Source: an uncultured Bradymonadales bacterium | GTDB lineage: Bacteria > Myxococcota_A > Bradymonadia > JAFGEP01 | Length of the DNA: 64,000 nucleotides | Direction: 5' to 3' | Assembly (NCBI GenBank): GCA_964503485.1 | Contig: CAZDBH010000001.1 | Span: 2,888-66,887, forward strand | Part shown: one piece after another, positions 8,723 through 40,174 of the stretch | Layout of the letters: every line of letters starts with the position of its first letter | Position numbering within the stretch: the stretch's first letter is position 1 | Notes under the pieces: model-generated | Told to the model about the DNA's origin: nothing | Databases searched by the model: none | What the model saw: the letters and a program-made list of their open reading frames with translations, nothing else | Position numbers and translations under genes: made by a program

Positions 8723-10123
8723 CTAAGAGCGCAGTATTTCCTTCTCGAGATGAGCGACCGCTGAGCCGACCGTTTGATCGGATTCGACGAGGTCGCTGAT
8801 CTTACGGCAAGCAGCCAGCACGGTCGTGTGATCGCGACCGCCGAACTTTTCACCGAGCTGCGGATAGGAAAGGCCTGTCAGTCGCTTTGCCAAATACATG
8901 GCCAATTGGCGCGGCTTCGAGAAGGCGCGCTTGCGCTCTTTGCCTTTCATATCAGCGACACGAATCTGATAGTAGCTCGAGACGACCTTTTGGATGTGTT
9001 CGACACTGACGCGTCGATTGTCACCCTTGAGCAGTTGTTGCAGCAAACTCTTGGCCAGCTCCTTAGTGAGGCGCTTGTTGTTGAAGCCGCTGTAGGCGTG
9101 CAGACGAAGGAGCGCTCCCTCGATTTCGCGCACGTTGTCTCGAATGTGCTCTGCCAGGAAGAGGGCTACATCGGGAGTCAGTTCGAGGTTTAGGGCCTGT
9201 GCCTTTCGCTCGATAATCGCCAAACGCGTCTCGAGGGCCGGCGGTTGGATGTCGGCGATCAGGCCCCACTGAAAGCGTGAGCGAAGTCTGCTCTCGATAT
9301 CGCGCAAGTCTTGGGGCGTTCGATCGGAGGTGATGACGATCTGTTTGCCGGCCTGGTGGAGCGTGTTGAAGGTATGGAAGAACTCCTGTTTGGTGCTCTC
9401 TTTACCTGCCAGGAACTGAATATCATCGACGAGCAACACATCGACTTGATCGCGGTAGTACGCCCTGAAGGCCTTCATTTCACCGGCCTTGAGGTGCTCG
9501 ATCAGGCGATTCATGAAGTTTTCGGTCGTGGTGTAGTGGACGTTCAGCTTTGGATCGGCTCGAAGCAGTTCGATACCAACAGCGTTCAGAAGATGGGTTT
9601 TACCTAGACCAACTGCCCCATAGACGAAGAGCGGGTTATAGATGCACCCTGGATGGTTGAAGACAGTGCGACACGCCGCGTGAGCAAACTCATTGCTGTC
9701 ACCAACAACGAACGAATCAAACGAATACTGCAGCTTGAGACCACTGGCCAAAATACGTTCAGTCGGCGTTGGTTCTGCCGGTTGGATGGTCAGCGGTGGA
9801 TCGGTGAGAATCGAACGTTCATTCTGGCGTAGCTTTGGGATCGAATCGGGAACAGCGATACCGGGGCACTCTGTCTTGGCGAGCGGCTCATGGACGAGTT
9901 TTAGTTGAATCTCATCGCCTACGATACGCGTGAGATGGAGCCGAATGAGCTGAGCAAAGTTCCTTTCTATGAAGACGGCATCAAATTCATCATCGGCGAG
10001 CAAACAAAGTTCACTAGTTGTGAACTTTTGCGGTGTGAGCGGCCTGAACCAACGGTTGAACGTGGTCGCTGGTACTTTGGTTTGGATGGCAGCAAGAACA
10101 TCTTTCCAGTGTGCAATCATCAA
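8723..10123 (-). CDS. dnaA: Chromosomal replication initiator DnaA
   Basis: N-terminal WxxxLxxxxxxVPxxxFxxWxRPL, AAA+ Walker A GAVGLGKTHLLNA, DnaA signature VDVLLVDDIQFLAGKE, and a C-terminal DNA-binding domain. Confidence 0.95.
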   Translation of the reverse strand: MMIAHWKDVLAAIQTKVPATTFNRWFRPLTPQKFTTSELCLLADDEFDAVFIERNFAQLIRLHLTRIVGDEIQLKLVHEPLAKTECPGIAVPDSIPKLRQNERSILTDPPLTIQPAEPTPTERILASGLKLQYSFDSFVVGDSNEFAHAACRTVFNHPGCIYNPLFVYGAVGLGKTHLLNAVGIELLRADPKLNVHYTTTENFMNRLIEHLKAGEMKAFRAYYRDQVDVLLVDDIQFLAGKESTKQEFFHTFNTLHQAGKQIVITSDRTPQDLRDIESRLRSRFQWGLIADIQPPALETRLAIIERKAQALNLELTPDVALFLAEHIRDNVREIEGALLRLHAYSGFNNKRLTKELAKSLLQQLLKGDNRRVSVEHIQKVVSSYYQIRVADMKGKERKRAFSKPRQLAMYLAKRLTGLSYPQLGEKFGGRDHTTVLAACRKISDLVESDQTVGSAVAHLEKEILRS

Positions 10124-10927
10124 CTTCCTGGCCGAGCCGGTGGGTGGGTACCAGACAGATCCATCCGTCTCGTTGATTGTCCGTAATCAACGACAGTAGT
10201 ACCCGCCACACACTTCGTGTGTCGCAGTATTCAGATACGATGAAGCTCAAACAATCGAATGTGTCGCAACAGCGACTGACCGAATCCGATCGGTATTCGT
10301 CGCCATCCCCCGTCTTGCGCTCGCATTCGAATCAGTTTTCTTCTATGCGTGACGGAATCGGAAGCACAACGTCGTCATTAGGGAACCCCGCGTACCCAGG
10401 AATGCGACGTACTGCGTCTTCTCGAGTCCGAGAAACACGTTTTCAAAGAGGCTCGATAAACCGTTTACTCGTTTGAAAACCTGTGCTTAGGCAACTTTGA
10501 AGGGAGTGTTTTCCGCAGATCTACCCAAATGAACCAAACAGTCTGAACTGGGTAGCTCGCAGAGTGCTCTCTCCTCAACAGCCTCACACGCAACTTGCAA
10601 GCTAGAACATCAAAAATGGCTCGTCAACCGGTAATCGGCCATCTACATGAAATTTTAAGTGTATGATAAATAAGGTGAATTTTCCAAGTGCTGAAAAACG
10701 TTGCAGCTTTTTTCCTCGGCATTATTGGGACTCGATAAACGTAGGATTTTGTACGGAAAGTCGGTTGCCGAGCTCGCTGCCGAGCGAAAAATCACAAGTT
10801 GTGAGGTAGATCTTCACCCGCGCCATGCGGCCCACTAAGTACGGCTTTCTTCTGTGATTTCGTCGTCTTGTGTCGTGATCTCGAGAGATCTCAGGCCTGG
10901 CCCGGTCTGCGCGCCTCCCAAAATCGC

Positions 10928-10955
10928 TTGACATGGGTCGACGAGTGTCTATTTC
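10928..10955 (+). promoter_or_regulatory. Candidate sigma70-like promoter for groES (TTGACA-N16-TATTTC)
   Basis: A TTGACA hexamer and a weak -10 hexamer lie about 145 nt upstream of the groES ATG. No CIRCE inverted repeat was found. Confidence 0.25.
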
Positions 10956-11099
10956 TTTGCGCCGAATGAACCACCCTGCTTGGCGGCGATTTTTGTTGTC
11001 ATTTCACAGGAGTGGATTCTCTCGTTCCAGCATGAAGAAACAAGACTTTGGGAAGTGGTCACAGACCATTACGAGGCTTCCCCACACGGAGATATACGA

Positions 11100-11387
11100 A
11101 TGAACGTAAAACCATTGGGAGATCGAGTTCTAATTCGCAGGCTCGAGGAAGAGACGCGCAGCAAAGGTGGCATCATCATTCCTGATACCGCCAAAGAGAA
11201 GCCGATGCGCGGCGAAATCGTGGCGACAGGTCCAGGCGAACGAATCAAGGAAGGTGGCCGTCGACCCATGTCCGTGAAAGAGGGCGATACCGTCATCTTC
11301 GGAAAATACGCTGGAACCGAGGTAAAGGTTGATGGTGAGGACTACCTCCTCATTCGCGAAGACGAAATCTTCGCCGTCATCGATTGA
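11100..11387 (+). CDS. groES: Co-chaperonin GroES
   Basis: [35 protein letters not shown]... is the canonical GroES sequence. The true start is the internal ATG preceded by a GGAGA SD; the ORF track's upstream extension is not coding. Confidence 0.9.
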
Positions 11388-11446
11388 ACCAACCAAATCA
11401 TTAGCGGCCGTATCCTACGAGTTTCCGGTCCACTTAGGAGTTATAG

Positions 11447-13039
<1,593 letters not shown>

Positions 13040-13249
13040 GTTACTCCGCTCGGCGATGAATTCTCACGTCGAGTGGTTTTTCTCCCCTTCGAATTCCCAG
13101 TCTATACCCATACCAAGTGCAGCTACTGGTGTAGCCCAATCGGAGGATTGCGCCGCCTTGGCTATCGACTATTCACAGCTCCTGTGGCAAAACCTGTGGC
13201 CAGTCAGTGGATGACTTGGGGTGAATCTCGATGCGGTTTTTTGATCACC

Positions 13250-13415
13250 GATCATCCTGCAAAAAGGCAGCTTGTTATTCACATGATGACGCGTTGAAAG
13301 CGCTTGCTTTTTCAAGGCAATCTTAGTTTATTCACATGTTCACAGGCCCTACTACTACGACGAATAAATAACAAAAAGAAAGTTACTATTTATTCGTAGA
13401 TACACAGGAGCTCAG
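13250..13415. other. Putative oriC core / dnaN upstream region with DnaA boxes and AT-rich DUE-like segment
   Basis: Two exact TTATNCACA matches (TTATTCACA at 13275..13283 and 13328..13336). A weaker TGTTCACAG follows, then a very AT-rich 60 bp with a perfect 10-bp inverted repeat (CGAATAAATA at 13361..13370 and TATTTATTCG at 13387..13396) just before the dnaN start. Confidence 0.45.
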
Positions 13416-14534
13416 ATGCATATATCGATTGACGCAAAAACGCTTGCAGCTTCTCTATACAAGCTCCTAGGTGTCACCAACTCGAAAGGTCCACTGACTA
13501 TCGTCTCCAACGCCTTGTTAACTGCACGTGAGGACAACACCTTGCTGTTGGAAGCCACGGATCTCGAGGTCACAATCTCGACACGGCTGGAGTGCGAAGT
13601 AGACAAGCCAGGACAGCTTTGTCTGAACGCACACAATCTCTACAACGTAGTCAAAGGACTCAAAAACCAAAAAGCTGAGATTGGTGCTCTAGACAACCAC
13701 TGGGCCAAGCTCACATCAGGCGATGTGGACTGTCGAATCGTTGGCGTCCCCCCAGTTGAGTTTCCTAAACTGCCCGCCCTAGGCGAGCTTGCTTATTTCT
13801 CGATCGACACGAGCGCTCTACTCGAGATGGTCGAGCGCACCATCTTCTCGATTTCGACCGATGAGGGTCGCCCCAACTTGATGGGAGCGTATCTGGTCGC
13901 TCGCGACGATGGCCTGATGATGGTCTCTACCGACGGGCACCGATTGTCACGGGTCGCTCGTATAGCCAACGAGTCCGGTGGGTTGCCAAAGGAACTCGTG
14001 GACGGAATCATCATTCCCCGCAAGAGCTTGGCTGAGCTGAAGCGAACCGTTCAAGGTGACGTGCCTGTTATCGATACGGCGATTAGTGGCAACAACGCGG
14101 TGTTTCGTTTTGCCGATACCACGATCATGGTGCGTCTCGTCGACGCGACCTTTCCAGACTACACCCGGGTCATTCCCGAAGAGACGAAAGAACGCCAGGC
14201 TCGCGTGAACACCGCTGAGTTTGTCGAGAAGCTCAAGTTTGTCTCGCTGTTCTCGAACAGCCGAACGGGAAATGTGACGGTTCAGATCGACGGCGATATC
14301 CTACAGCTGTCTGCCAGTGACCCCGACAAGGGCGAAGGGAAAGAAGCTATGCCGGCTGCATACGTCGGTCCCACAGTTCAAGTCGGCTTCAACTACCGCT
14401 ATCTGTTGGATATCCTCAGTGTGCTTGATTCACCCGAGTTTCGCTTCCAGATTCTCGATGCGTATTCGGCCGCTCTCGTGCTGGACGGGGAGCGCGAAGA
14501 TGACCTGTTCCTCGTGATGCCAATGCGTCTATGA
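13416..14534 (+). CDS. dnaN: DNA polymerase III beta sliding clamp DnaN
   Basis: 372 aa with the three-domain beta-clamp pattern, sitting immediately upstream of recF. Confidence 0.9.
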   Translation: MHISIDAKTLAASLYKLLGVTNSKGPLTIVSNALLTAREDNTLLLEATDLEVTISTRLECEVDKPGQLCLNAHNLYNVVKGLKNQKAEIGALDNHWAKLTSGDVDCRIVGVPPVEFPKLPALGELAYFSIDTSALLEMVERTIFSISTDEGRPNLMGAYLVARDDGLMMVSTDGHRLSRVARIANESGGLPKELVDGIIIPRKSLAELKRTVQGDVPVIDTAISGNNAVFRFADTTIMVRLVDATFPDYTRVIPEETKERQARVNTAEFVEKLKFVSLFSNSRTGNVTVQIDGDILQLSASDPDKGEGKEAMPAAYVGPTVQVGFNYRYLLDILSVLDSPEFRFQILDAYSAALVLDGEREDDLFLVMPMRL

Positions 14535-14541
14535 GTTCTGA

Positions 14542-15666
14542 ATGATCATCACTCGTCTGAACCTGACCGACTTTCGAAACATTCGGTCAGGTGAGGTTCT
14601 GCCTCATCCCCATTTCAACATACTCTCAGGACATAACGGCGCCGGTAAGAGCAACGTGCTCGAAGCCATCTTCATCATGTCGAACGTCAAGTCGTTTCGT
14701 AGCGGAAAGAACGCTGATCTCGTCAATCTGAATAGCAAACAGGCTGAGATTCGACTCAAAGTAGACAGGTCTGGCGTTGGCAAAGATCTTCGGGTCGAAA
14801 TCGGGGAACGACGCAAGCGGTTCTGGATCAACGAAAACGCAATCAAGTCCTTTTCAGACTACGCCGGCGCCCTGCGAACCGTCATCTTCAGTCCGGCAGA
14901 TTTACGTCTGTTGCACGGTTCCTCAAAGGAACGTCGGGCCTTCATCGACCGTATCGTCTGCAACACTCAGCCGGTTCATTTGGTCGACCTTCAAAACTTC
15001 GAGACTGCGCTCAAGAGTCGCAATCAGCTTCTCAAGGACCCCCAACCGGATCGCATACTGCTCGACGCCTACACCGATCAGTTCTGTCCACTGGCCGCCC
15101 GGATCATCGCGCGTCGAAACCAAGTGCTCAGTGCGATTGAGCCAACGATCAGAGCGGTGTTCCACTCGATCTTCGCTCCAGGGTTCGATGTTCGGTGCCT
15201 CTATTTCTCGAAGTGGCGGACTGATCAGCCCAACGAAGCGAACTCAGATCTGCCTACGGTGGAACGAACAGAAGAGATACTGCGCGAGCACTTGGTTTCG
15301 ACACGGCACGCTGAGCGACGGGCCGGCTTCACGTTGGTGGGGCCTCACCGCGACGATATCAAAGTCTTCTTGAACGATCTTCCAACTCGCGAATACGCGT
15401 CACAAGGCCAAGCGCGAGCAATCGTCCTGGCGATGAAGATTACCGAGATTCGGTATATTGAAGAGGTCAACCGAGAGTGTCCGGTCTTGTTGCTCGATGA
15501 CGTGTCCAGTGAATTGGATCGGACTCGAAATGAACAGCTGTTTTCCTTCATCCGAGAGTTGAGCGCCCAGACTTTCATTACGACAACCGATCGTCGCTTT
15601 ATCGGTATTGAGGAAGACGTGGCTGAATGGGTACTCCGGGACGGGGAGCTGTCGGTCGTAGACTGA
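14542..15666 (+). CDS. recF: DNA replication and repair protein RecF
   Basis: Walker A GHNGAGKSNVLEAI, the SMC-like signature and a LLLDDV Walker B; canonical position after dnaN. Confidence 0.9.
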   Translation: MIITRLNLTDFRNIRSGEVLPHPHFNILSGHNGAGKSNVLEAIFIMSNVKSFRSGKNADLVNLNSKQAEIRLKVDRSGVGKDLRVEIGERRKRFWINENAIKSFSDYAGALRTVIFSPADLRLLHGSSKERRAFIDRIVCNTQPVHLVDLQNFETALKSRNQLLKDPQPDRILLDAYTDQFCPLAARIIARRNQVLSAIEPTIRAVFHSIFAPGFDVRCLYFSKWRTDQPNEANSDLPTVERTEEILREHLVSTRHAERRAGFTLVGPHRDDIKVFLNDLPTREYASQGQARAIVLAMKITEIRYIEEVNRECPVLLLDDVSSELDRTRNEQLFSFIRELSAQTFITTTDRRFIGIEEDVAEWVLRDGELSVVD

Positions 15667-15742
15667 AATCGATTCGTCGCAGAGAGGTTGCCACCAACAG
15701 GCGACCCGAGATACAACACCCGCACACAGCACACGGAGAGTC

Positions 15743-16510
15743 ATGATGGACGTCAAAGGTCTAACCGAGCGGTTTACGTCGGATAAGGTGCGACTAGCAC
15801 AATTGGGAGGGCTGTTGGCCTTCTCGGTGTTCTCACTTCTGGGAACACTTCTCGACGGCAGATTCATGAGCTTCTTGATTCTAGCCACCCTGGCCGCCTT
15901 TCTGTTTCTGACAATCGCACCGATCTATCTCGCGGCGATTACCGCGAGTGATTCCTCTCTTCCGAAGAGCGGACACATCAGTTTGCGTGCGGCAGAGGGG
16001 GCAGGGATGTCCGGCATCGCACTGACCGTAGCGATTCTGTGTATGGCTCTGGGCGTACTCTTTCAAGGTCTGAAACCCGACGTGGCCCCGGCTCTGGTGC
16101 ATTCATTCCTGGCGGTGTTTGTTCTCGGCGCCCAAGCAATGGTGTGTGCCGCCATCGCAGCTGGCGTAGGGCTGACAAACGTCTTGCGCAGTGCAGACGT
16201 AGTCCTGGAGTCTCCGCCACCACCGAAGCCCAAACCAGCTCCGCAGGCCTATCAGCAACCGGCAGACCAACAACAGGCCTATCAGCAGCAGCAACAGGCC
16301 TACGAGCAGCAACAACAGGCTTATCAGCAGCAACAACAGGCCTATCAGCAGCACCAGCAGGCCGCACCAGCCGCCGCCGCACCAGCGGCACCAGCGGCAC
16401 CAGCCGCCGCCGCACCGGCCGCCGATTCAGCTCAACCCCAGGTTCAACCACCAGCGTGGCCTGCCGAGGGCGGTAGCGATTCGACCGGTGGCGATCAATC
16501 GGGCAGCTAA
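15743..16510 (+). CDS. Membrane protein with Gln/Ala/Pro-rich low-complexity C-terminus
   Basis: Four predicted TM helices are followed by QAYQQQQQAYEQQQQAYQQQQQAYQQHQQ and PAAAAPAAPAAP repeats. It occupies the position where gyrB is usually found. Confidence 0.5.
   Translation: MMDVKGLTERFTSDKVRLAQLGGLLAFSVFSLLGTLLDGRFMSFLILATLAAFLFLTIAPIYLAAITASDSSLPKSGHISLRAAEGAGMSGIALTVAILCMALGVLFQGLKPDVAPALVHSFLAVFVLGAQAMVCAAIAAGVGLTNVLRSADVVLESPPPPKPKPAPQAYQQPADQQQAYQQQQQAYEQQQQAYQQQQQAYQQHQQAAPAAAAPAAPAAPAAAAPAADSAQPQVQPPAWPAEGGSDSTGGDQSGS
16244..16432 (+). repeat. Tandem CAG/CAA-rich about 21-bp repeats followed by GCC/CCA repeats (coding)
   Basis: gcctatcagcagcaacaacag units occur about five times, then ccagcggcaccagc units. 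They encode the QAYQQQQ and PAAAP tracts. Confidence 0.7.
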
Positions 16511-16521
16511 TCTAGGCAACT

Positions 16522-18162
16522 GTGATAGCCAAAGCGGCTCAGAACCTCGAACGAAGGCTAGTCAAATCGGTTCGGAAGTCGGTCGACGTCTCGAGACCCG
16601 ATCAGGTTGCCTCCTATCTAATCGACATTCTCTCAGGTCGTTTTCAACACGACTGGGCACCGAGTGGCCGGTGGACGCTCAAGCAGCTCAACGCCGTGAG
16701 TCGAGCCTACTCTCGCACCCGCTTCGGTGCAAAGTCGAAAGGGGCTTTCTACACGCCAGGTTGGGTCGCTGAACGTTTGGTCGGTCAGGTTACGGACTTC
16801 GGATGGCCGAGCGATCACGTGCTTGATCCGTCCTGTGGCGGCGGGTCCCTTTTACTGGCCGCCATTTCTGCCTTGAACCCATCCAGAGTTACTGGCTGGG
16901 ACACCGATAGGTCGGCGGTTCGACTGGCAAAAGCACTGCTGGAGTACTTCTGCGCCGATCAAAAGCGATCGGTCGAAATCGATCTTCGTTGTGCCGATCA
17001 ATTCGAGGCGGTTGCATCGGTTGGGAACATAGACCTGGTTCTGACCAATCCGCCCTACGGCACGGAGCTCAACGGCTGTGCCAAAGCCTTTGCCGAAACC
17101 CAACGTCTATGCGGCCGGGAACCGGACAAGTTCGCGTTGTCGCTGGAATTATTGCTGTCATTGAGTTGTCCAATAGCTGCGGTAGTACCAGACGTGATTC
17201 GAATGCAGCCCGAATACGAGGTATTGAGGCGGTACCTGACAAAAGAGCACCCGATCGACGCCATAGACAACCTAGAGTTCGGTTCGTTTCCAGAGGCAAC
17301 AGTCCAACCGACTCTGTTGTTCATTGGCCGAAAATCGAACGCTGAACTCTCAGTCCGGTTTTCGTCTCCCACTGAGACAGCAACAGCGGTTTCACGGGAA
17401 GCCATCTCATCTGATCGGCTCTGTCGCTGGCGGCGGAATGTTGGCCTGCTACAGCAGTATTGGGACGCGGATCATCGACCACTCGGTGAGATTGCCCAGT
17501 GCCATGAAGGGGTCCACACAGGCAACATTCGAGAGAAGCTGTTTACGTCAGACGCAAATGTCGATCATGCCCGGCCCCTATTGAAAGGTGCTGACGTGAC
17601 ACCGTTCGCCTTCGATTTTCGCGGTCGGTACGTGCGATATGACAAGGGGCTCATCGACCGAAGCGCAGGGGAGTACGCGTCGCTTAGGGACCCAGATATA
17701 TTCGAAGGTCCCAAACTGTTTAGCCGACAGACGAGCGACAGGTTGGTCGTGTGCTACGACGACGGCAATCTGGTGAGTGACAATACGCTTCACTCGATCA
17801 AGGTCAGGCAAGGGGAGACATATACTCTCGAGTGGCTCGCGCTGTACCTGAACTCCAGTTTGGCGACGGCCCTCTATCGGTTCGAGTCGGGGGAGGAGAA
17901 TCGACCGCTGCCCCAAATTAAACTCGTTCTCTTGAAACAGCTTCCAGTGCCTCGACCGAAGAACGACAAAGAAGCAGAAGCGCTGTTTCGAGAGACAGCC
18001 GAGGCGGCATCGACTGGAGCCCTCGATGACGCCACAATGAGGCGCATCGATCGATTTGTGTTTGACAGCTTTGGTGTGAAGGAGTCAGATAGATCACCGA
18101 TAATCGAAAGGGCGATGACCAAGCCGGTCAGAACTCAGCGACGAGAGCGTTTACCGCAATGA
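16522..18162 (+). CDS. N6-adenine DNA methyltransferase, Eco57I/TaqI-like gamma class, with TaqI_C-like target-recognition domain (orphan)
   Basis: The motif order is GAFYTP, then motif I LDPSCGGGSLL, then motif IV LVLTNPPYG (NPPY). The C-terminal region (LLKGADVTPFAFDFRGRYVRYD...IFEGPKLFSRQTS...) resembles the TaqI_C TRD. No endonuclease partner is adjacent. Confidence 0.75.
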   Translation: MIAKAAQNLERRLVKSVRKSVDVSRPDQVASYLIDILSGRFQHDWAPSGRWTLKQLNAVSRAYSRTRFGAKSKGAFYTPGWVAERLVGQVTDFGWPSDHVLDPSCGGGSLLLAAISALNPSRVTGWDTDRSAVRLAKALLEYFCADQKRSVEIDLRCADQFEAVASVGNIDLVLTNPPYGTELNGCAKAFAETQRLCGREPDKFALSLELLLSLSCPIAAVVPDVIRMQPEYEVLRRYLTKEHPIDAIDNLEFGSFPEATVQPTLLFIGRKSNAELSVRFSSPTETATAVSREAISSDRLCRWRRNVGLLQQYWDADHRPLGEIAQCHEGVHTGNIREKLFTSDANVDHARPLLKGADVTPFAFDFRGRYVRYDKGLIDRSAGEYASLRDPDIFEGPKLFSRQTSDRLVVCYDDGNLVSDNTLHSIKVRQGETYTLEWLALYLNSSLATALYRFESGEENRPLPQIKLVLLKQLPVPRPKNDKEAEALFRETAEAASTGALDDATMRRIDRFVFDSFGVKESDRSPIIERAMTKPVRTQRRERLPQ

Positions 18163-20030
18163 CAGACCAGCCACACCCCATGCTCCCGAAGGCCGGAGAT
18201 ATCCTGTTGGGGAGGTACGTCATTGAAGAGGTGCTCGGCGAGGGTGGTTTCGCAACAGTCTATCGGGGCCACCAGCTGGGGGTAGAGCGCACCGTCGCGA
18301 TCAAGTGCCTCGATCCGAGTTCTATCAACAAAGATCGTGGCGCAGCACAGCGGTTTACAAGCGAAGCCCGGGTTGCGAGTGGGTTAGAACACCCCAATAC
18401 CATCACCGTTTTCGACTATGGCCGAACCGAGAAGGGCATCCTCTTCCTGGTGATGGAATACGTCGACGGTGTGACACTCGAGACCTTGCTCGAGCGCGGT
18501 CCAGTGCAGCCTGAGCGGGCTGCCCACATAGTGAGACAGATCCTCCACAGCCTGCGGGAAGCCCACAGTCATCAAATCGTCCACCGCGATCTCAAGCCAT
18601 CAAACATTATGGTCTGCGACCGTGCCGGTGAAACCGATGTGGTCGTTGTGCTCGATTTCGGAATCGCGAAGGTCCTAACAGGTGAGAGTCCGATGGACAT
18701 CACCCGAAAGATGACTGGGCTAGACAAGATAATCGGTACACCGCGCTATATGTCGCCGGAGCAGATCCGTGGCAAGCAACTGACACCGGCTTCGGATGTC
18801 TATTCGGTGGGACTGATATTCTTCGAGCTGCTCACAGGTCAGCCGCTCATCGAGCATTCAGAGACCATGGTGGTGTTGAGCAAGCAACTCACACAGGCAC
18901 CGCTCGAACTCCCGAGAGATGGGAGTATCGAGCCCAAGTACCTCACCGTCTTGGAGCAGGCACTACAGAAGGAAGTCAGCAAGCGATTTCGGACGGTAAA
19001 CGAATTCCTGGGCGCCCTCGATGTGGCGCCTATGTACGTTTATAGCCCGGCCCAGATTCAAATGGCCGAGGCAGAAACCGTTCCCCTGGACCTAGACAAC
19101 ATCAAAGAAATGGTGGTCGCACAGCACGCAGCCAAGCAGGTGCAAGAGCGGCGACTGGACCCTGTAGTCATGCCCCGACCCGGGGTTGCGCCGAGCGCGC
19201 AGCCCGGAAACCGCAACATCGTTCTGTTGAATATTCTGCTGGCCTCTTTGTTGATTTTCCTGGGGATCATTTTCGGCGCAGTTGTTCTGCCCCGTCTTCT
19301 CAGTGACGGCCAGTCAGATCGAATCGTGTACGTCACCCAAGAAGGGGTGCAAGTCGAGCCACCAACCGGAGCACCCGAGTCAGGACGAGAGTCCCCACCG
19401 GTAACCGCACCCCTGCAGTCCTATCAGGTGGCTCACACACGCAGCATAGTGAACCGGGCACAAGTCGCGGCGATGACCGCGGCCAATCCTCTGAGATTCA
19501 CATTCATCGGATCGCCGGACGGTGTGTCACTCACGCTGGCAGGGGATACCATCGGCAATCAAGGTGAGGTCATCGCTATCCCCCCCGACCGGTTGCCCAA
19601 CGAAGTGGAAATCAGCGCAGACGGTTATTACTCGGATTGGGTGCTCGTCGCGGTCGACACGCCCCGCACAGTGGTATTCAACTTGAGGCCATTGGTCGCT
19701 GCGGCGACCCCCAACGATACAACGAGCACCCGTCGAACCGCTTCGAGCGATCGGGATAGGGAGCGATCCAGCAGAAGCCGCGAACGCAGCAGTCGATCAG
19801 AGCGCGACAGAGAGGAAGCCCCGGAAGAGTCCACTATTGGCCTGATCGATTTAGACCGGTCCCAAGGCGCTTCGGACGGCGATCGATCGAGCCGATCTTC
19901 GGCCTCGAGTTCTACCTCCACCAACTCGACCATCATCGCACCCATCGACGAGAGTCGGAGCAGTCGAAGTCGCTCACGTCAACGCGACGAAGAAGACGAA
20001 TCCGCGGCCAGTGCGTTTGAGCCTTTCTGA
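18159..20030 (+). CDS. Hanks-type Ser/Thr protein kinase, single-pass membrane, with Arg/Ser/Asp/Glu-rich tail
   Basis: LGEGGFATVYRG, VAIKCL, HRDLKPSNIMV, DFGIAK and GTPRYMSPEQ motifs; one TM segment (IVLLNILLASLLIFLGIIFGAVVL); the tail is RTASSDRDRERSSRSRERSSRSERDREE...SRSSRSRSRQRDEEDE. The start ATG overlaps the methyltransferase stop (ATGA). Confidence 0.85.
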   Translation: MTDQPHPMLPKAGDILLGRYVIEEVLGEGGFATVYRGHQLGVERTVAIKCLDPSSINKDRGAAQRFTSEARVASGLEHPNTITVFDYGRTEKGILFLVMEYVDGVTLETLLERGPVQPERAAHIVRQILHSLREAHSHQIVHRDLKPSNIMVCDRAGETDVVVVLDFGIAKVLTGESPMDITRKMTGLDKIIGTPRYMSPEQIRGKQLTPASDVYSVGLIFFELLTGQPLIEHSETMVVLSKQLTQAPLELPRDGSIEPKYLTVLEQALQKEVSKRFRTVNEFLGALDVAPMYVYSPAQIQMAEAETVPLDLDNIKEMVVAQHAAKQVQERRLDPVVMPRPGVAPSAQPGNRNIVLLNILLASLLIFLGIIFGAVVLPRLLSDGQSDRIVYVTQEGVQVEPPTGAPESGRESPPVTAPLQSYQVAHTRSIVNRAQVAAMTAANPLRFTFIGSPDGVSLTLAGDTIGNQGEVIAIPPDRLPNEVEISADGYYSDWVLVAVDTPRTVVFNLRPLVAAATPNDTTSTRRTASSDRDRERSSRSRERSSRSERDREEAPEESTIGLIDLDRSQGASDGDRSSRSSASSSTSTNSTIIAPIDESRSSRSRSRQRDEEDESAASAFEPF

Positions 20031-20058
20031 GTTCGGGCAATCCCTGTACAAGGACGAC

Positions 20059-20457
20059 ATGTCGGACGCGATCACAAATCAGCCATACTCTGAAGTTATC
20101 GGAATCAGCTTTTTCGCCTTCCACGGCGCCTATCCCGAAGAGAAAGAGAACGGACAAACGTTCACGGTGGATGTCGCACTATACGGAGACTTCGCCAACA
20201 GGGCAGAGTTCAGTGACGCGCTTGATGAGACCGTTGACTATGCAGCCGTCTGTCAAACTGTAATCAACATTGGTACAACGACCCGGGTCGATCTGTTGGA
20301 GCGCCTGGGAGCGCTGATGGCAGACGAACTGATCGCGAAGTTCCCAGTCACGTCAGTCACTGTATCGGTCTCAAAAAACCCGCCCGCAGGTGTGCCTGGT
20401 GACCCCAAGCGTTTTACGGTGAGGGTTCGCCGCAGCCGGCCGAGGTTGTTAGAGTGA
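20059..20457 (+). CDS. folB: Dihydroneopterin aldolase FolB-like
   Basis: IGISFFAFHGAYPEEKENGQTFTVDVAL resembles the FolB core (IGVLPEERELGQ..VVDLEL). Start chosen at the internal ATG (MSDAIT) downstream of the kinase stop. Confidence 0.6.
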   Translation: MSDAITNQPYSEVIGISFFAFHGAYPEEKENGQTFTVDVALYGDFANRAEFSDALDETVDYAAVCQTVINIGTTTRVDLLERLGALMADELIAKFPVTSVTVSVSKNPPAGVPGDPKRFTVRVRRSRPRLLE

Positions 20458-21866
20458 CGATGGACGGTCGCTCACTACCTCAACTCACCACCGAGATTCC
20501 TGGGCCGCTATCGCGCAAGTGGGTCGATTCGCTCTCGCGTACCGAGTGTCCAGCAATTACGGCGCGCCGCTCTCGACGATCAGAGGCGGGTGGTGTCGAC
20601 CAAGACCCGATTGTCTGGGAGGCAGGCAGTGGCGCAAACATTCGCGACGTCGACGGGAACGTCTATGTAGATATTACGTCATCGTTCGCTGTGGCGGGCA
20701 TAGGACACAGTCACCCTGTCGTCGCCGAAGCGGCCGCAGAGCAAGCGCGCACGCTTCCTCACGCAATGGGCGACGTCTATCCAGCCCGCGTGAAGATTGC
20801 TCTCGCCGAACGCCTTGCCCAAATCGCTCCGGGCGATCTCGAGGTATCGATATTCGGTATGTCGGGCGCGGAGTCGGTTGAGGCAGCCATCAAATCGGCG
20901 GTGATTTGCACAGGAAAGAGCACGATTGTCTCGTTCCAGGGCAGTTATCACGGACTCAGTCTCGGAGCGTTGGCCGTCACCGGCTACAGACGAGAATTCA
21001 AAGCACCATTCAAGGGGCAAATCGCCCAATTCGGTCGGCAGTTTCCGTTTCCGAACTGCTACCGGTGCCCGATCGGTCAGCAATATCCGGAATGCAACAC
21101 GGCCTGCCTCAACCCTCTTGTCGACGCCCTAGATAGCCCTGCAAGCGGTCTAGATGACGTGGCTGCGGTGCTTGTCGAGCCGATCCAAGGTAGAGGGGGA
21201 ATGGTCGTTCCCCCCGACGAATGGCTCGTCAAACTAGCGGAAGTGTGCAAAGCGCGCGGCATTCTGCTCATTTTCGACGAAATTTTCACGGGATTCGGAA
21301 GAACGGGCCGATGGTTCGCGGCTGACCACAGTGGAGTCGTGCCCGATCTAATGTGCCTTGGTAAGGCCCTTGGCGGTGGGTTTCCAATCAGTGCCGCGAT
21401 CGGAACCCGTGAGGTAATGGGCCACTGGGGACTATCAAAGGGGGAAGCCCTCCACACCAGCACCTTTTTGGGCAATCCCCTGGGTTGTGCGATGGCGCAG
21501 GCCGCCATCGGAGTGCTCACGGACGAACAACTGATCGAGCGCTCGGCCTCTTTGGAAACCACCATCCGCGGAGCCCTGAATCGATTGGCGGGCAAGCATG
21601 ATTCAATCGGGGATGTCCGGGGTCGGGGGACCATGTTTGGTGTGGAGTTCGTCTCTTCGCGCGAAGAAAAGACGCCCGATTCAACCACGGTCATGCGGCT
21701 GACACGGAGGCTTCTCGAACGTGGATTCTTGGTGCTCCCGGCGGGTGTTCATGGCAACATCCTAGGAATTACACCGCCCTTTGTCATAACCAACGAGCAA
21801 TTGAACGGGTTCTTCGAAGCCCTCGACGACGAGCTCCAACAGGTAGGAACGGGGCGACTCCGATGA
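20454..21866 (+). CDS. Class-III pyridoxal-phosphate aminotransferase
   Basis: LLIFDEIFTGFGRTGRWFA...CLGKALGGGFPISA PLP-lysine region. ATGA overlap with folB. Confidence 0.85.
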   Translation: MTMDGRSLPQLTTEIPGPLSRKWVDSLSRTECPAITARRSRRSEAGGVDQDPIVWEAGSGANIRDVDGNVYVDITSSFAVAGIGHSHPVVAEAAAEQARTLPHAMGDVYPARVKIALAERLAQIAPGDLEVSIFGMSGAESVEAAIKSAVICTGKSTIVSFQGSYHGLSLGALAVTGYRREFKAPFKGQIAQFGRQFPFPNCYRCPIGQQYPECNTACLNPLVDALDSPASGLDDVAAVLVEPIQGRGGMVVPPDEWLVKLAEVCKARGILLIFDEIFTGFGRTGRWFAADHSGVVPDLMCLGKALGGGFPISAAIGTREVMGHWGLSKGEALHTSTFLGNPLGCAMAQAAIGVLTDEQLIERSASLETTIRGALNRLAGKHDSIGDVRGRGTMFGVEFVSSREEKTPDSTTVMRLTRRLLERGFLVLPAGVHGNILGITPPFVITNEQLNGFFEALDDELQQVGTGRLR

Positions 21867-23026
21867 TTGGACTGTCACACCACGGCAGTCAGCTTCTCTC
21901 TCTGATGTTCCTGATTACTGTCTTCTCGGCTTGCGAGAGCCGAAGCGGGGCGCAGCCCGCGAATCCTCCACAGGCGCCACCCGAGAACCAGCCCGAGCCA
22001 CAATCGGAAACTGTGATCGCCGACCCGGTATGCAGTCCCGAGCTGAGGCGGTCGCAACACCGGGGGGTGTGCTATGCCCACAATTGGCAGCATGGCGGTC
22101 GTCGGGGTTATGGATCCGAAACCTCAGTCGCGTCGCTGCGAGAACTTCGTGAGATTGGAATCGATTGGGTGAGTATCACGCCGTTTGGTTGGCAACGCAG
22201 TCTAAGTTCTACCGAAATCTCAACCGTCACTTCGGTGGCGAGTGAGAACACCGATCGACTGAGGGCAACGGTAGCGCAAGCCCACGAATTGGGGATTCGG
22301 GTCATGATGAAGCCCCATCTTTGGTTGAGCTACTCAGAGTGGCGGGGCCACATCGATCCTGGCTCCCCAGAGGGGTGGGAGGATTGGTTTGCGAGCTACC
22401 AGTCGTTCATCCTCGGATACGCTCGCCTGTCACAGGAAATCGGCGCAGATATGTTCGTCGTCGGCGTCGAATTCAAGAGTTCGACAGCGACTCACCCCGA
22501 ACACTGGAGGCGTGTGATCGCCGCCGTTCGCGAGGTGTACGACGGGCCTGTGGTTTATGCGGCAAACTGGGATGAGGCTGAACTCATCACGTTTTGGGAC
22601 GCGTTGGACTTCATCGGGGTCCAGATGTTTGCCCCATTGTCTACAGAAGTCAGCCCCGCTCGTGACGAGTTGACCGAGTCGGCACGGGCCTACCTCGAGC
22701 GTTATAGAGCCATCTCGGAGCGATACGACAGGCCAGTAATTCTCACCGAAGTAGGCTACAAGTCGATCTCGGGAACGGCAATCTCTCCCTACGTTTGGCC
22801 CGAACACCTGGAACGTGACGCAACCGAACCGAACGAACAGGCGCAAGTCGACGCCTATTGCGCCATTTTGGAAACCTTTGGTGAGGCGGACTTCGTCAGC
22901 GGAATCTACTGGTGGAAGTGGTTCACCGATCCCGAGACAGATGAAGAGGACGAGACTGGTTTTAGTCCGCGCGGCAAGCTGGCAGAAGGTCTTCTAAGGT
23001 CATCCTATAGGGACTTTGTTCATTGA
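21863..23026 (+). CDS. Secreted TIM-barrel glycoside hydrolase-like lipoprotein
   Basis: Lipobox LITVFSAC. The motifs MKPHLWL, NWDE, ILTEVGY (candidate catalytic Glu) and GIYWWKW indicate a GH clan-A-like fold. ATGA overlap with the aminotransferase. Confidence 0.5.
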   Translation: MIGLSHHGSQLLSLMFLITVFSACESRSGAQPANPPQAPPENQPEPQSETVIADPVCSPELRRSQHRGVCYAHNWQHGGRRGYGSETSVASLRELREIGIDWVSITPFGWQRSLSSTEISTVTSVASENTDRLRATVAQAHELGIRVMMKPHLWLSYSEWRGHIDPGSPEGWEDWFASYQSFILGYARLSQEIGADMFVVGVEFKSSTATHPEHWRRVIAAVREVYDGPVVYAANWDEAELITFWDALDFIGVQMFAPLSTEVSPARDELTESARAYLERYRAISERYDRPVILTEVGYKSISGTAISPYVWPEHLERDATEPNEQAQVDAYCAILETFGEADFVSGIYWWKWFTDPETDEEDETGFSPRGKLAEGLLRSSYRDFVH

Positions 23027-23036
23027 ATCCAGCCGC

Positions 23037-23942
23037 TCACCGCCCGAGTTGAGTACCTGATCTCGTGCGGTTCGTTCGAGCGGTCCTACCTGAGACGGTC
23101 TCCCAACCGACCAGGCCGATCTTGCCCACTAGAATGAGCGCGACAAGCCAGGAGAGCAGGCTCGTGAGGAAATACCAGAGTGGTTTTCCACGTTTCACAA
23201 TCTCAAACTCGTCCACAAAGATGACCTCGCACGCTCCGCCTTCGCTATCGTCACGGCGGGTGCTCGTGGTTCGCCAGGAACCGGGATAAGAGGCCATCTG
23301 GTAGTTCACCAAGCTGCCGCGCACGCGCACCTGATCTCCGACCCGAACAGTCTCGATCAGGTCCCGAATGGCCTGGTTGTTTGTGACGAGGTGATTATTC
23401 GCGATCGCCCGTCCAGAAAATCGAATCCGAGACTGATACTGCCAGTAGCATGTGAACGACCCACTCCAGAACTCGACCTCTAGGTAGTCTTTCGATCGAA
23501 GGTTATCTCCCCAGATCACGCACAGGTCCTTGGTATCGACCGACGAACTGTCGTGATAGATGTCACCGAAACCATCTATGTCGTTGTGGCTGACGACCAG
23601 TCCCCACAATTCGTAGTCAGCTACAGGCTCGACGTCATACACAGTGTTTTCGTACTCGAACGAAAAAGGTACGCGCTCGGTCTCCACTTGAAGAGGCTCG
23701 TTGAGCATCGACTCTTGAAGCGTGCTCGGTTCCGGAAGCCCAGAGCGCATGAAGCGTGCGAAGACAGACGAACCGAATACGACCACGAGCAGTATTGTGA
23801 GGACCTTCTGAGTGCGGCGCAGCGAGGGGCGGCTGGGCTCAAATTGGGGCATCGGAGCGCTGGGACGCACGGGTTCGTTACCGTAGCTCGGTGGAAGATG
23901 GGCGGGAGGCGCAGAAAACTGATCCGGTCGAGGATCTTTCAC
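23037..23942 (-). CDS. Hypothetical membrane protein with Pro-rich N-terminus
   Basis: The Pro-rich cytoplasmic N-terminus is followed by a TM segment, an approximately 200-aa domain and a C-terminal TM. No family was recognised. Confidence 0.4.
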   Translation of the reverse strand: MKDPRPDQFSAPPAHLPPSYGNEPVRPSAPMPQFEPSRPSLRRTQKVLTILLVVVFGSSVFARFMRSGLPEPSTLQESMLNEPLQVETERVPFSFEYENTVYDVEPVADYELWGLVVSHNDIDGFGDIYHDSSSVDTKDLCVIWGDNLRSKDYLEVEFWSGSFTCYWQYQSRIRFSGRAIANNHLVTNNQAIRDLIETVRVGDQVRVRGSLVNYQMASYPGSWRTTSTRRDDSEGGACEVIFVDEFEIVKRGKPLWYFLTSLLSWLVALILVGKIGLVGWETVSGRTARTNRTRSGTQLGR

Positions 23943-24013
23943 GGGCCGATTTTACGTTTCCATTCGCGAAATGTCATGACCAATAGATTGATGATGCTTC
24001 CGCTCGAAATGGA

Positions 24014-24292
24014 GTGATAAAAATGTTCAGGAAATCAATTATGAGCTTACTTGTCGCCGCCGCACTGATGATGACGTTAATGTCAGGATGCGTGGTTCAC
24101 ACTCGCGCTCGGGTCGTCGATCCGGCACCGTCCCCCGTGGTAGTTACTCAACGGACAGCCCCTTGGCGGGTTCATCACCAGGGTCGATATCTGTACTATC
24201 GCAGCAACGGCTACTACCACTGGCGCGGTGGCCGCTGGGTGCGCGCAAACAGCGTCCCAACACATGTTGTGCACTTTCACGTGGCGGGCTGA
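24014..24292 (+). CDS. Small lipoprotein, His/Arg/Tyr-rich
   Basis: Signal and lipobox LMSGC are followed by a basic aromatic mature peptide (HHQGRYLYYRSNGYYHWRGGRWVR). Confidence 0.35.
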   Translation: MIKMFRKSIMSLLVAAALMMTLMSGCVVHTRARVVDPAPSPVVVTQRTAPWRVHHQGRYLYYRSNGYYHWRGGRWVRANSVPTHVVHFHVAG

Positions 24293-24296
24293 TCGG

Positions 24297-27200
24297 CTAT
24301 CTCGAGCGCTTCTTGCGGTGTCTCTTCTTCAGAACGGCGAATTTCGGCGGATGAGTCGTAGGTGACGGTGCTTCGTCGCTGGGTTCGACGAATTTTTCGG
24401 TGAGTTTGTCCGCGGAACTCTTCTGGCGGGCGTCTGTCGAAAGGCTGGAGTCAAAAGCCCAAACCTCTTCCGCCGCTGCATCCATCACTGGTACCTTTAA
24501 CGCTTCGCCAACCACTGGCGCCGTTTCCAAACCCGTTCCAGTGGCCAACGGACCTGCAGTTAGAGCGTTGGTTGCTGCCTCACCAAGCTGTTCGGTTGAC
24601 GGAGGCTCTAGTTCGAATGGCGCCACGAGTCTGTCCGCGGTGCCTTTGGCCATTACCTCCGTACTCAGTTCAAAGACCTCTTCTACGACTGCTTCGACCG
24701 ACGTCGGTGTTGGGTGAGGCGCTGGTCCGCTTGAACTCCCCGCAAGAGTTGGCGTCTCGAGGTTGGGAAGCGGCGGTAGTGTCAGATCAAATGCCAACCC
24801 GGTTGGCGTTAAGTCGCCATCTTGTCGACCACCCGCGAACGAATTGGCCGGATGTTGTGGAGGCGGAGGGGGCTCCTTGGATCGAGGCGGTGGCTCTTTG
24901 GGTGGTGGAGGTGGACCCGGAGCCTCTTGCCTCTTGGTTACCTGTTCGTGAATTCCCTTGGAAAACGGGTTGTTTCCAACAATATCACTCGAGTTCGGTG
25001 ATACAAACGCTTCAAGCAAGGTGTTGGCAGTTGATTGGTCGACGGTCAGCGTGACTTCATCCGCCCTGATTTCTCGGTCTGCAGGCTTCTCGACAGGTGC
25101 GGCCGGCATAAACTTGTCGAGCAGTTTGTCCGCTTCCTGCCGCCCTACCGTCCTCGTATTCTCTTCCTCGGTCGGATCGAACTCCGTGGCGTCAACTATC
25201 GGCGCTGCGGGTTGATTGGGTGGCTTGGTCTCATTCAGAGCGTCTGGCATGAAAGCGCTGAGAAGCTTGTCCGCCTCTCCCTTTGTGACTGTTCGCGTAT
25301 TGAGCTCTTCGTCGGCTCGAGCGGTCTCAGCGACGGTAGCAACCTCGGGTATTGGCTCCGGCGTAACGACCGGAAGCGACGTTGAGGACTCTTCGGGGAG
25401 AAACTGGTCTAGCAACGACCGAACTTTTGCTTTACCGACCGCTTTGGTTACTGGTTCTTCGTCTTCTTCGGCGAGCTTTCTCTTTTGTTCCACCGGCCGA
25501 TGTTCGTCGGTCGGCCTCTCTTCTCCGTCTTCTTCTTCGTCGTGCGTTTTCTCTGTATTCACCGGCCGATGTTCGCCGGTCGGCCCTTCTTCAGTTTCCT
25601 CATCCCGCAACGCGAGGGCCGCGGCTATGCGGTTTGCGGCTCGGTGCTCGCCAGTTGGCTTTTCGTCATCCCACGATGGGTGTTGGGTCGGGCCACCTGT
25701 CGTAGATTGTTCAGCGGAGGCGTTCTCTTCGGCCGCTGAGCCACCGAGCTGCAGTTTGGAGACCGCTGGTGGCCCAGCGGCAGGGGTTTCAAAGGCTTGC
25801 CGAGGCTGCGTATCGACAATTTCGATTGGGATATCGATTGTTTCGTCCGGCACGGCGGCATCAGGATCACTGATGCTCTCGATAACTGGAGGCGCGGACA
25901 TCGCCTCCCGAGGTTTTCCGAGACCGTCGAGTATCTCCCACTGCTTCCTGCTCAGCAGGACGTGGGCCTCGGCGGGAACCACTCCCTTAATCAAACCGTA
26001 GGTTTCTCGATTCGCGGGGTCGCTCAAGTCGACAATCCGGACATCCGTAGGATGGGTGCTGGGATCGAGTACCAGGAGAATGCTGGGTGCAAGTGGTTTG
26101 CCCAGCTCAACCTTCCCACCACCGGAAACGATGCCAAGCCAACCCTCTGTTGTTTCGACGGGAGTGCCGACTGGCAGATAGCCGAGGACCCTGGTGAGCA
26201 GTTTGAGGATCAGAGCTTCTCGGGGGGAGCGAACGTGCCGGACTAGCGCACCAAGCGCGAGTTCAGGTGCCCGTTGTGATTGTTTCCGGACGTCAAAACG
26301 AAGGGAGTTGATGTAGCGCCACACGACGGAAACGAGAAGCGAAAGGTCGCCAAGATCAGAACCATCTGGGAAGGCCGAGTTGACCTCAGGTGAGTACTGG
26401 GCAACTAACGATTCAAAGGACAGCACGAGTCGAGGAAGTGATTTTTCATGAAGTCGACCGAGAGCGGTGAGGACAACAGCGGAGGAAGCCGCCATTCGCA
26501 GTCGCTCTTCGTTGCTCAACCGAGGAATCGCCCGGATTTTACCGAGCTCACTCTCGGTCATACCGGCCACTCGCGGTCGGCCACAATCAGCCAACATGGC
26601 GCCCATGGCAGCAAGCGATAGGGTCTCTCGATCGTCAGTGACGGTGCGGGCAGCAGCGATGCTGAGAATAGCAGCGTTCACGGCACAGCCGGCATCATCG
26701 AACGATAGGTTTCGCATCGAGCCGACCCCGAGTGCGAGCCGGTTCTCGTCATCTGCCAGCTCAATCAGACCCTGCGAGATCCTCTTGAGCTGCTGAATCA
26801 TGACGTACTTGCCGTCTTTCAGATTCTCGTAGAGACGGCGAACGACGACGATTGCGGACGCATACTGATAGGCTAGCCGCTCTTGCTTGGTCCGCTTCCT
26901 ACGCGAACCCGCGATGTCTAGATCGACCCGTCGGAACCGAATAGAGGTACCGATATCGAGCTCGTCAGGACTTTTCCCACTGCCACTGGGGTTAGCGACT
27001 AGTGCAGCAAAGTCGGCGATGTCCTCGGGCCCGGTGCTGTCCTCAAAGACGATCTCGTTGACACCCAGTTTCTCGAGGCTCTCGCGAACCTCGGTTCCCA
27101 TTGCATAGACGGACTGAGGCGCCTTGAGATACTGGGTGCCGATCAGGATGCTCTGATGGAAGAAGAGGATTCTGGCTGACTGGTCTTCGATTTGATTGAC

Positions 27201-40034: not shown

Positions 40035-40174
40035 CCCCGCCAACCAATCGCTGCTGACCGGCCGCGGGCACATGATCTAACTCGGTTTCGACACAGTCGC
40101 CTGAAATTTTTGGGTTCGGCAACAAGATCGCCGATTTGTTTCATGAAGGTCATTCGGCAGTAGCGAGAAACAGC

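Follow-up and report, generated by a model that had tools for sequence, protein, structure and literature searches.

A 64,000-nucleotide stretch of DNA from an uncultured Bradymonadales bacterium, referred to here as the window, encodes a solitary DNA adenine methyltransferase (MTase) downstream of dnaN and recF, flanked on the same strand by genes for a small membrane protein and for a membrane-anchored Hanks-type Ser/Thr kinase. Our analysis suggests, with about even confidence, that these three genes (the trio) form a lineage-specific, vertically inherited cassette of an uncultured Bradymonadales-related clade, whose MTase is an orphan epigenetic or housekeeping enzyme of the type represented by CamA. 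What is new is a clade-specific orphan MTase in an undescribed, conserved three-gene context.

The methyltransferase is predicted to be a two-domain enzyme of the gamma class

An earlier note on this DNA, made from the letters alone, had described the product of the central gene as a gamma-class MTase with FYTP, motif I and NPPY motifs and a TaqI_C-like target recognition domain (TRD). This description was borne out by the translation, by Pfam matches above the family cutoffs (N6_Mtase, 39.3 bits against a cutoff of 20.4; TaqI_C, 53.2 bits against 26.5) and by matches of the predicted fold. The motifs follow one another in the order X (FxTP), I and IV (NPPY), with the TRD at the C terminus, which is the arrangement that defines the gamma class. 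In an alignment of the orthologs, residues D102, P103, C105, G106, G108, N176, P177, P178 and G180 were invariant or nearly so and position 179 was occupied by Y or F, and the catalytic motifs of the window protein are intact.

The AlphaFold2 (AF2) model of the MTase had a mean predicted local distance difference test score (pLDDT) of 86.5. When the full-length model was compared with known structures using Foldseek, the best match was CamA (7lni; template modeling score, 0.67), followed by M.BseCI (7qw5; 0.65) and then by BrxX and M.TaqI; for M.TaqI against the model, the target-normalized score was 0.72 to 0.75. A profile search of the PDB with the MTase orthologs retrieved M.BseCI (1.8e-17), as well as HsdM subunits of type I systems and CamA. 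CamA is the closest relative in kind and M.BseCI the closest in sequence. Because the model superposes over its full length on DNA-bound CamA and M.BseCI, we predict that the gene product is a two-domain, gamma-class DNA adenine MTase of the monomeric type; by homology, its activity on DNA would be the formation of N6-methyladenine.

Amino-methyltransferases of the NPPY type include HemK/PrmC, RlmL and METTL5. Weak NCBIfam and PDB matches of the MTase to PrmC/HemK, rRNA methyltransferases and METTL5, made through the Rossmann/NPPY core, raise the alternative that the enzyme acts on RNA or protein and not on DNA. We give this alternative hardly any credence: the matches are confined to the core and fall far under the family cutoffs, whereas the TaqI_C DNA recognition domain scores above its Pfam cutoff and the whole-length model superposes best on DNA MTases that were solved with DNA.

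The trio is kept together while its flanks are rearranged

The window was compared with seven further lineages (L001, L002, L005/L006, L034, L035, L037/L038 and L040/L041), of which L001 is the Bradymonadales metagenome-assembled genome (MAG) GCA_016931535 and L005/L006 is GCA_046766295. The genes for the membrane protein, the MTase and the Hanks kinase were found on one strand and in this order in 8/8 lineages. The earlier note had proposed conservation of the MTase-kinase pair as its own refutation test, and the pair passed, adjacent and on the same strand in every lineage; the conserved 255-residue membrane protein encoded 5' of the MTase had been absent from that note.

The flanks of the trio are less stable. 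The dnaN-recF pair lies 5' of the trio in six of the further lineages, the exception being L002, in which genes for DUF3108, DUF1302 and infC stand upstream and the junction between recF and the membrane protein gene has been lost. On the other side, an aminotransferase gene is found 3' of the kinase in 7/7 lineages whose contigs extend this far. L002 and L035 lack FolB, which in L005 has been displaced by the insertion of a gene, and L001 and L002 lack GH113. The junctions that are unbroken in the eight lineages are the two within the trio and, apart from these, only dnaN-recF. Since the intra-trio junctions were never broken and the flanks were rearranged, the trio behaves as a unit that is stabler than its surroundings.

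The stop codon of the MTase gene overlaps the start codon of the kinase gene in an ATGA, as the earlier note had read, and this overlap had been taken as translational coupling. The overlap itself is present in the sequence and recurs in L034, but it is one of four in series (MTase/kinase, 4 nucleotides [nt]; kinase/folB, 20 nt; folB/aminotransferase, 4 nt; aminotransferase/GH113, 4 nt), and the other lineages have gaps of 6 to 114 nt. With MTase-kinase spacing ranging from -4 to +114 nt across lineages, translational coupling of the two genes is not conserved; nor is an overlap with the kinase gene specific to the MTase, because folB also overlaps it. The three genes of the trio are probably cotranscribed.

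The methyltransferase gene is native, under purifying selection and most conserved in its recognition domain

In GC content at third codon positions the MTase gene (0.60) resembles its neighbors (0.60 to 0.66), which indicates native composition. Compared with L041, the closest lineage, the MTase is 74% identical, and the ratio of nonsynonymous to synonymous substitution rates (dN/dS) of ~0.13 indicates purifying selection; synonymous divergence from this relative is saturated (dS of >1), so that all dN/dS values given here are rough.

Mean pairwise identity among the eight MTase orthologs was 63% in the TRD, 47% in the catalytic domain and 22 to 28% in the termini and linker. The methyltransferases of restriction-modification (R-M) and BREX systems typically diversify their TRDs. 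Conservation that is highest in the TRD is the opposite of this pattern and is expected for an orphan enzyme with a fixed motif. We detected no tblastn match to the MTase in 50,697 phage records, and the plasmid matches were limited to distant haloarchaeal and Enterococcus sequences with ≤32% identity. No integrase-type or nuclease domain was found among the scanned open reading frames (ORFs) of the window.

No restriction partner is encoded near the methyltransferase

The MTase had been called an orphan, with no cognate endonuclease, PglY or PglZ nearby, and this holds on a wider comparison. Among the called genes within ~10 kb of the MTase, none in the eight lineages encodes an endonuclease. 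When the larger ORFs of the window were scanned with Pfam and PADLOC, no restriction endonuclease, PglY (BrxC), PglZ or further mad gene was revealed, and the orthologous loci contained none either. In motif order, NPPY catalytic loop and TaqI_C domain the MTase is like M.BseCI and M.TaqI; unlike these enzymes, which have cognate endonuclease partners, it is solitary in all eight lineages and lies in a syntenic housekeeping region.

The MTase might nevertheless be part of a conventional Type II R-M system with an endonuclease gene at another site, or be the functionless remnant of a decayed system. Its closest relatives outside the clade are R-M enzymes of the Eco57I/MmeI/TaqI_C type and Type IIG enzymes, PADLOC matches it best to a generic model of Type II MTases (4.6e-24), and the metagenome assemblies are incomplete. 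Type II restriction and modification genes are, however, almost always adjacent, and the ~10 kb covered in each lineage contains no restriction gene; the unannotated 301-residue neighbor encoded at 23037 to 23942 is a membrane protein with two transmembrane segments and is not nuclease-like. The intact catalytic motifs and the dN/dS value argue against decay, and the retention of the gene at a single syntenic site in lineages that share as little as 64% DnaN identity is unlike the turnover of R-M systems. We therefore consider an R-M origin of this kind highly improbable.

Adjacency to a kinase alone does not indicate a Pgl/BREX- or MADS-like defense system

An adenine MTase together with a Ser/Thr kinase recalls two known defense systems. 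In Pgl, the MTase PglX co-occurs with the Ser/Thr kinase PglW (PMC4365076, PMC12839542), and MADS, which is located in a defense hotspot, is an eight-gene operon (mad1-8) of which MAD6, MAD7 and MAD8 are mandatory and in which mad2, encoding an N6 MTase, likewise occurs together with mad6, encoding a kinase (bioRxiv 10.1101/2023.03.30.534895). The earlier note had suggested a resemblance to Pgl/BREX type 2 or a minimal defense pair. In such a cut-down anti-phage system, the MTase would mark self and the kinase would trigger growth arrest or abortive infection. Beyond the pairing itself, the catalytic and TRD region of BrxX/PglX is a fold relative of the MTase, PADLOC gave partial matches to mad2 for the MTase (1.4e-18) and to mad6 for the kinase as well as strong matches of the kinase to PD-T4-6, a defense system consisting of a single kinase gene, and distant relatives of the TRD (L027 and L061, described below) adjoin kinase-TPR proteins.

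The remaining evidence did not sustain this suggestion, and we regard an anti-phage role as very unlikely. The NCBIfam scores are far under the cutoffs for PglX (BREX_1_MTaseX, 17.7 bits against 500) and MAD2 (31.1 against 720) in the case of the MTase and for BREX_PglW (90 against 990) and MAD6 (155.7 against 460) in the case of the kinase; the PADLOC PglX match of the MTase (E value, 6e-4) spans ~110 residues. As the earlier note had observed, both proteins are far smaller than their Pgl counterparts, at 546 residues against ~1,200 for PglX and 623 against 1,400 to 1,600 for PglW. PglW combines a NERD nuclease, a pseudokinase, a kinase, a winged helix-turn-helix (wHTH) and an iSTAND module (PMC12839542), whereas the trio kinase is of the membrane receptor type, with one kinase domain, one transmembrane segment and an ectodomain, and lacks the NERD, wHTH and iSTAND modules. 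The PADLOC PD-T4-6 match of the trio kinase (6.8e-79) was nearly paralleled by that of an unrelated Hanks kinase in the window (27347 to 30076; 1.3e-66) to the same models, and the mad6 match likewise, so that these matches reflect the Hanks fold alone.

The setting of the trio also differs from that of the defense systems. BREX type 2 is defined by PglZ and BrxC/PglY and occupies variable defense islands; the trio locus is core and syntenic and lacks both proteins, and neither the window nor the orthologous loci contain a nuclease or MAD7/8. No other mad genes were detected among the scanned neighbors of the trio. The locus has housekeeping flanks and native composition and shows no signs of a mobile element; the conserved TRD and the phage and plasmid searches described above also speak against defense. 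These results serve as a warning that adjacency of an MTase and a kinase alone is no sign of BREX- or MADS-like defense.

The distant TRD relatives just mentioned (L027, 1581 to 10572; L061, 38 to 3059) are long Eco57I- or Type IIG-like MTases followed by cytoplasmic kinase-TPR proteins of ~570 to 580 residues, an arrangement seen in 2/60 distant loci. L027 is a Bacteroidales MAG, in which the two genes are preceded by one for an SNF2/HKD helicase and the locus resembles a defense island. This arrangement differs from the Bradymonadales trio and is probably defensive; it may represent an undescribed MTase-kinase defense arrangement that is unrelated to the trio.

The three protein families share a narrow distribution

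Ten orthologs of the MTase were found among 5.8 billion clusters, with identities of 42 to 50%, and the next relatives were at ~25%. When 1.84 billion representatives were searched exhaustively with HMMER, only 4 ortholog representatives were found, at 680 to 800 bits, and the scores then fell to 315 bits. The protein with this score, P0144, is the nearest outgroup and has no kinase adjacent to it. A scan of genome contigs for further orthologous loci returned one ortholog; a scan of metagenome contigs returned no MTase ortholog, only relatives with ≤32% identity.

The partner proteins are similarly restricted. Full-length orthologs of the kinase number ~7 and all belong to the same clade, matches beyond these being at the level of the kinase domain only, and all 5 matches to the membrane protein family are within the clade. 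In the cultured Persicimonas, the kinase match is confined to the domain and lies at an unrelated locus.

The partners are a receptor-type kinase and a small membrane protein

The kinase was described in the earlier note as having a cytoplasmic kinase domain, one transmembrane segment and an extracytoplasmic tail. Pfam, hydropathy and AF2 agree with this topology, and AF2 resolves the outer part into a beta domain and a disordered tail. The residues K49, H142-R143-D144, D166-F-G168 and G193-T-P..P200-E201 (GTPxYMxPE) are invariant among the orthologs, and the protein is an intact eukaryotic-like Ser/Thr kinase of the membrane receptor type. The AF2 model of the whole kinase is poor (pLDDT, 57) and unfit for a fold search, but the beta domain is well predicted (per-block pLDDT of 82 to 92 over residues 441 to 510) and contains the conserved residues F449, G451, P453, G466, L479-P480 and E484. 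By eye the ectodomain resembles PEGA, yet Pfam gave no match even at an E value of 10, and the resemblance is no more than an impression.

The kinase encoded beside the MTase in L005 (2670 to 4367 of GCA_046766295) has approximately five C-terminal transmembrane helices in place of the single transmembrane segment and ectodomain. The identity of its kinase domain is ~33%, against 58 to 69% for the kinases of the other lineages. Either the partner kinase was replaced in place or it underwent rapid remodeling.

The membrane protein encoded between recF and the MTase gene has approximately four transmembrane helices by hydropathy, followed by a low-complexity tail that is rich in P and Q and contains QQAYQQ repeats. 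Its orthologs, of ~200 residues and with four transmembrane helices, are encoded immediately 5' of the MTase in all of the lineages, and no match to the window protein was found in Pfam, NCBIfam or PADLOC. In the window protein, the C-terminal part (encoded at 16240 to 16420) has QQ(A/Q)YQQ repeats in tandem and then a run rich in Ala and Pro; a P/Q-rich tail of variable length is present in all orthologs.

A putative origin lies upstream of the trio

The earlier note had placed the MTase and kinase genes right beside dnaA-dnaN-recF. The dnaN-recF pair is indeed upstream, but dnaA is on the minus strand, and groES-groEL and the membrane protein gene intervene. The 376-bp spacer upstream of dnaN (13040 to 13415) contains a region with TTATTCACA boxes, repeated CCTGTGG elements and a tract rich in AT. 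The motif ACCTGTGGCAAAACCTGTG(G) was found upstream of dnaN in 4/5 other lineages examined, L001 having a variant, and may be a clade-specific DnaA-box variant; CACAGG is enriched 16- to 39-fold in this region. Because the boxes, the repeats, the AT-rich tract and the shared motif all fall in this spacer, oriC is probably located here, ~3.1 kb upstream of the MTase. The k-mers enriched in the oriC-like region yielded no candidate methylation motif, only the DnaA-box-like words CCTGTGG and TTATTCACA and AT-rich words.

The block next to this spacer is found in two orientations. The window (8723 to 13039) and its closest relative L040 (3137 to 7292) have the order dnaA(-) groES(+) groEL(+) dnaN, an inverted block, and L001 (2360 to 6354), L034 (2689 to 6754) and L037 (540 to 4645) have groEL(-) groES(-) dnaA(+) dnaN(+). 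The oriC-like spacer has remained at dnaN despite the inversion, which has thus uncoupled dnaA from dnaN.

Inherited gene order could account for the adjacency

Several observations weigh against a functional cassette. The eight lineages are related, so that the eight observations of adjacency are not independent, and the invariant adjacency could reflect inherited synteny of genes that are not functionally coupled. These genomes are rich in Hanks kinases, with two in the window, which raises the chance that an MTase and a kinase are neighbors fortuitously. Evolution of the MTase is faster than that of its housekeeping neighbors, which are 85 to 88% identical to their counterparts in L041; for RecF, the kinase and the aminotransferase the identity is 85 to 87%, with dN/dS values of 0.03 to 0.07. 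The identity of the MTase to the other lineages is flat, at 45 to 51%, and does not track that of DnaN (64 to 80%). In L002 the trio lies away from dnaN-recF and its proximity to the origin is lost; the link of the trio to the origin may be historical. The metagenome assemblies are fragmentary, and an unlinked restriction enzyme could lie beyond the ~10 kb covered. Finally, we infer from homology both that the substrate is DNA and that the role is epigenetic.

The trio might therefore consist of fortuitous neighbors, in which a fixed orphan MTase stands beside an unrelated kinase and membrane protein in a slowly decaying ancestral gene order. Besides the relatedness of the lineages and the frequency of kinases, the variable MTase-kinase spacing fits this explanation, as does the tight packing of the whole string from dnaN to GH113, which is not specific to the pair. 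Against it, the intra-trio junctions are unbroken in all eight lineages while the flanks were rearranged, the three families have the same very narrow phyletic distribution, and the L005 kinase, although different in architecture, occupies the same slot and is likewise a membrane-bound Hanks kinase. We judge chance neighborhood to be possible, if somewhat doubtful, and retain the vertically inherited cassette as the preferred interpretation.

The methyltransferase may be a housekeeping or epigenetic enzyme comparable to CamA

Dam, CcrM and CamA are lineage-wide orphan MTases, each of which has proved to govern replication, repair, the cell cycle or development, and the role of CamA in sporulation has been demonstrated experimentally. 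The lack of a partner nuclease and a TRD that is the best-conserved region suggest that the trio MTase, like these enzymes, carries out housekeeping or epigenetic methylation of a fixed motif. As known for the family, it would bind S-adenosylmethionine via motif I and flip the target adenine into the NPPY pocket, and the C-terminal TaqI_C domain would read a fixed site. By analogy, the most likely outcome would be methylation of one fixed motif in the host chromosome for replication, repair or gene regulation and not for self-protection.

CamA is solitary and has no nuclease partner; it is core to a single lineage and seldom found in others (PMC8187626), as is the trio MTase. The trio MTase is likewise a solitary gamma-class enzyme of similar size (~550 to 580 residues), with an N-terminal catalytic and a C-terminal recognition domain. 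In contrast, its identity to CamA is 15 to 16%, so that the target motif of CamA cannot be transferred to it, and a pairing of CamA with a kinase or membrane protein is not reported in the literature that we found. The comparison with Dam and CcrM is one of concept: the MTase is a lineage-wide, solitary N6-adenine enzyme that would have a fixed motif and a regulatory role, and the nearness of oriC invites the analogy. Dam is of the alpha class and CcrM of the beta class, whereas the motif order of the MTase is that of the gamma class, and neither family was among its NCBIfam and Pfam matches.

A regulatory link between the kinase and the MTase is plausible, if speculative, in view of their invariant adjacency and shared phyletic distribution. 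In one version, the kinase and the four-helix membrane protein would sense an envelope or prey-contact cue and control the MTase, by phosphorylation or in another way, thereby shifting methylation at origin-proximal or regulatory sites; we consider such a signal-to-epigenome module unlikely, and to our knowledge no direct link from a eukaryotic-like Ser/Thr kinase to DNA methylation is known in bacteria. The origin-proximal epigenetic module envisaged in the earlier note is compatible with our data as an epigenetic role, but its proximity to the origin breaks down in L002. That note had also held the architecture to be undescribed, and our literature searches on Bradymonadales methyltransferases and on a link between orphan MTases and Hanks kinases returned nothing relevant.

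For the predatory and poorly studied Bradymonadales-like bacteria, the MTase would be the first candidate for a lineage-wide orphan of the Dam/CcrM/CamA type. Its pairing with a membrane kinase and a small membrane protein offers a testable route from an external signal to the epigenome; if the pairing is inherited gene order, the enzyme is one more clade-specific orphan MTase.

Layout of the locus and neighboring genes

The positions of the features are given in Table 1. From dnaN and recF through the trio to folB, the aminotransferase gene and GH113, the genes form a compact, codirectional string with overlapping or tiny junctions. FolB, the aminotransferase and GH113, joined in some lineages by DUF7107, make up a conserved cluster 3' of the kinase that may represent a separate pathway.

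TABLE 1 Features of the trio and its surroundings, in window positions
Feature	Positions	Strand	Details
dnaA	8723-10123	-	
groES	11100-11387	+	Between dnaA and dnaN
groEL	11447-13039	+	Between groES and dnaN
oriC-like region	13160-13400		CCTGTGG repeats, TTATTCACA boxes, AT-rich tract; ~3.1 kb 5' of MTase
dnaN	13416-14534	+	
Clade-specific small membrane protein	15743-16510	+	255 residues; between recF and MTase
Solitary gamma-class N6-adenine DNA MTase (predicted)	16522-18162	+	GTG start; 546 residues
FYTP	16747-16758	+	Residues 76-79, within GAFYTP (74-79); from translation
Motif I, VLDPSCGGGSLLLAA (S-adenosylmethionine-binding loop)	16819-16863	+	Residues 100-114; from translation
NPPY	17047-17058	+	Residues 176-179; NPPYG, 176-180; from translation
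TaqI_C-type TRD	17476-17955	+	Residues 319-478; Pfam TaqI_C over 352-476
ATGA, MTase stop (TGA) over kinase start (ATG)	18159-18162	+	From sequence
Membrane-anchored Hanks-type Ser/Thr kinase	18159-20030	+	623 residues
Cytoplasmic kinase domain	18216-18992	+	Residues 20-278; Pfam Pkinase, 1.3e-51, 175.9 bits
Single transmembrane segment	19206-19310	+	Residues ~350-384, Kyte-Doolittle; AF2 helix, 352-382
Seven-strand beta domain, predicted extracytoplasmic	19491-19688	+	Residues 445-510; AF2
R/S/D/E-rich disordered tail of kinase	19701-20027	+	C-terminal to beta domain
FolB	20011-20457	+	Pfam
Class-III aminotransferase	20454-21866	+	Pfam
GH113	21863-23026	+	Pfam

A promoter and terminator scan of positions 13000 to 24500 gave counts no better than those of shuffled sequence, and no Rfam element or tRNA was detected when the window was scanned for them.

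The second Hanks kinase of the window, the one used for comparison above, is a protein of 909 residues encoded on the minus strand, ~7 kb from the trio kinase. Its gene shares one base with that of a 1,016-residue protein (24297 to 27347, minus strand), which was matched by neither Pfam nor PADLOC. Two large proteins encoded on the plus strand (31638 to 34358 and 34674 to 36644) contain cysteine-rich CTDC repeats of the Dictyostelium type (Pfam, 3.2e-30 and 1.8e-17). Thrombospondin type 1 (TSP1) repeats are animal-type adhesion repeats and are unusual among bacteria; a protein of 1,195 residues encoded at 40136 to 43723 on the plus strand carries ~11 such TSP1/spondin repeats (Pfam, 9.9e-172).

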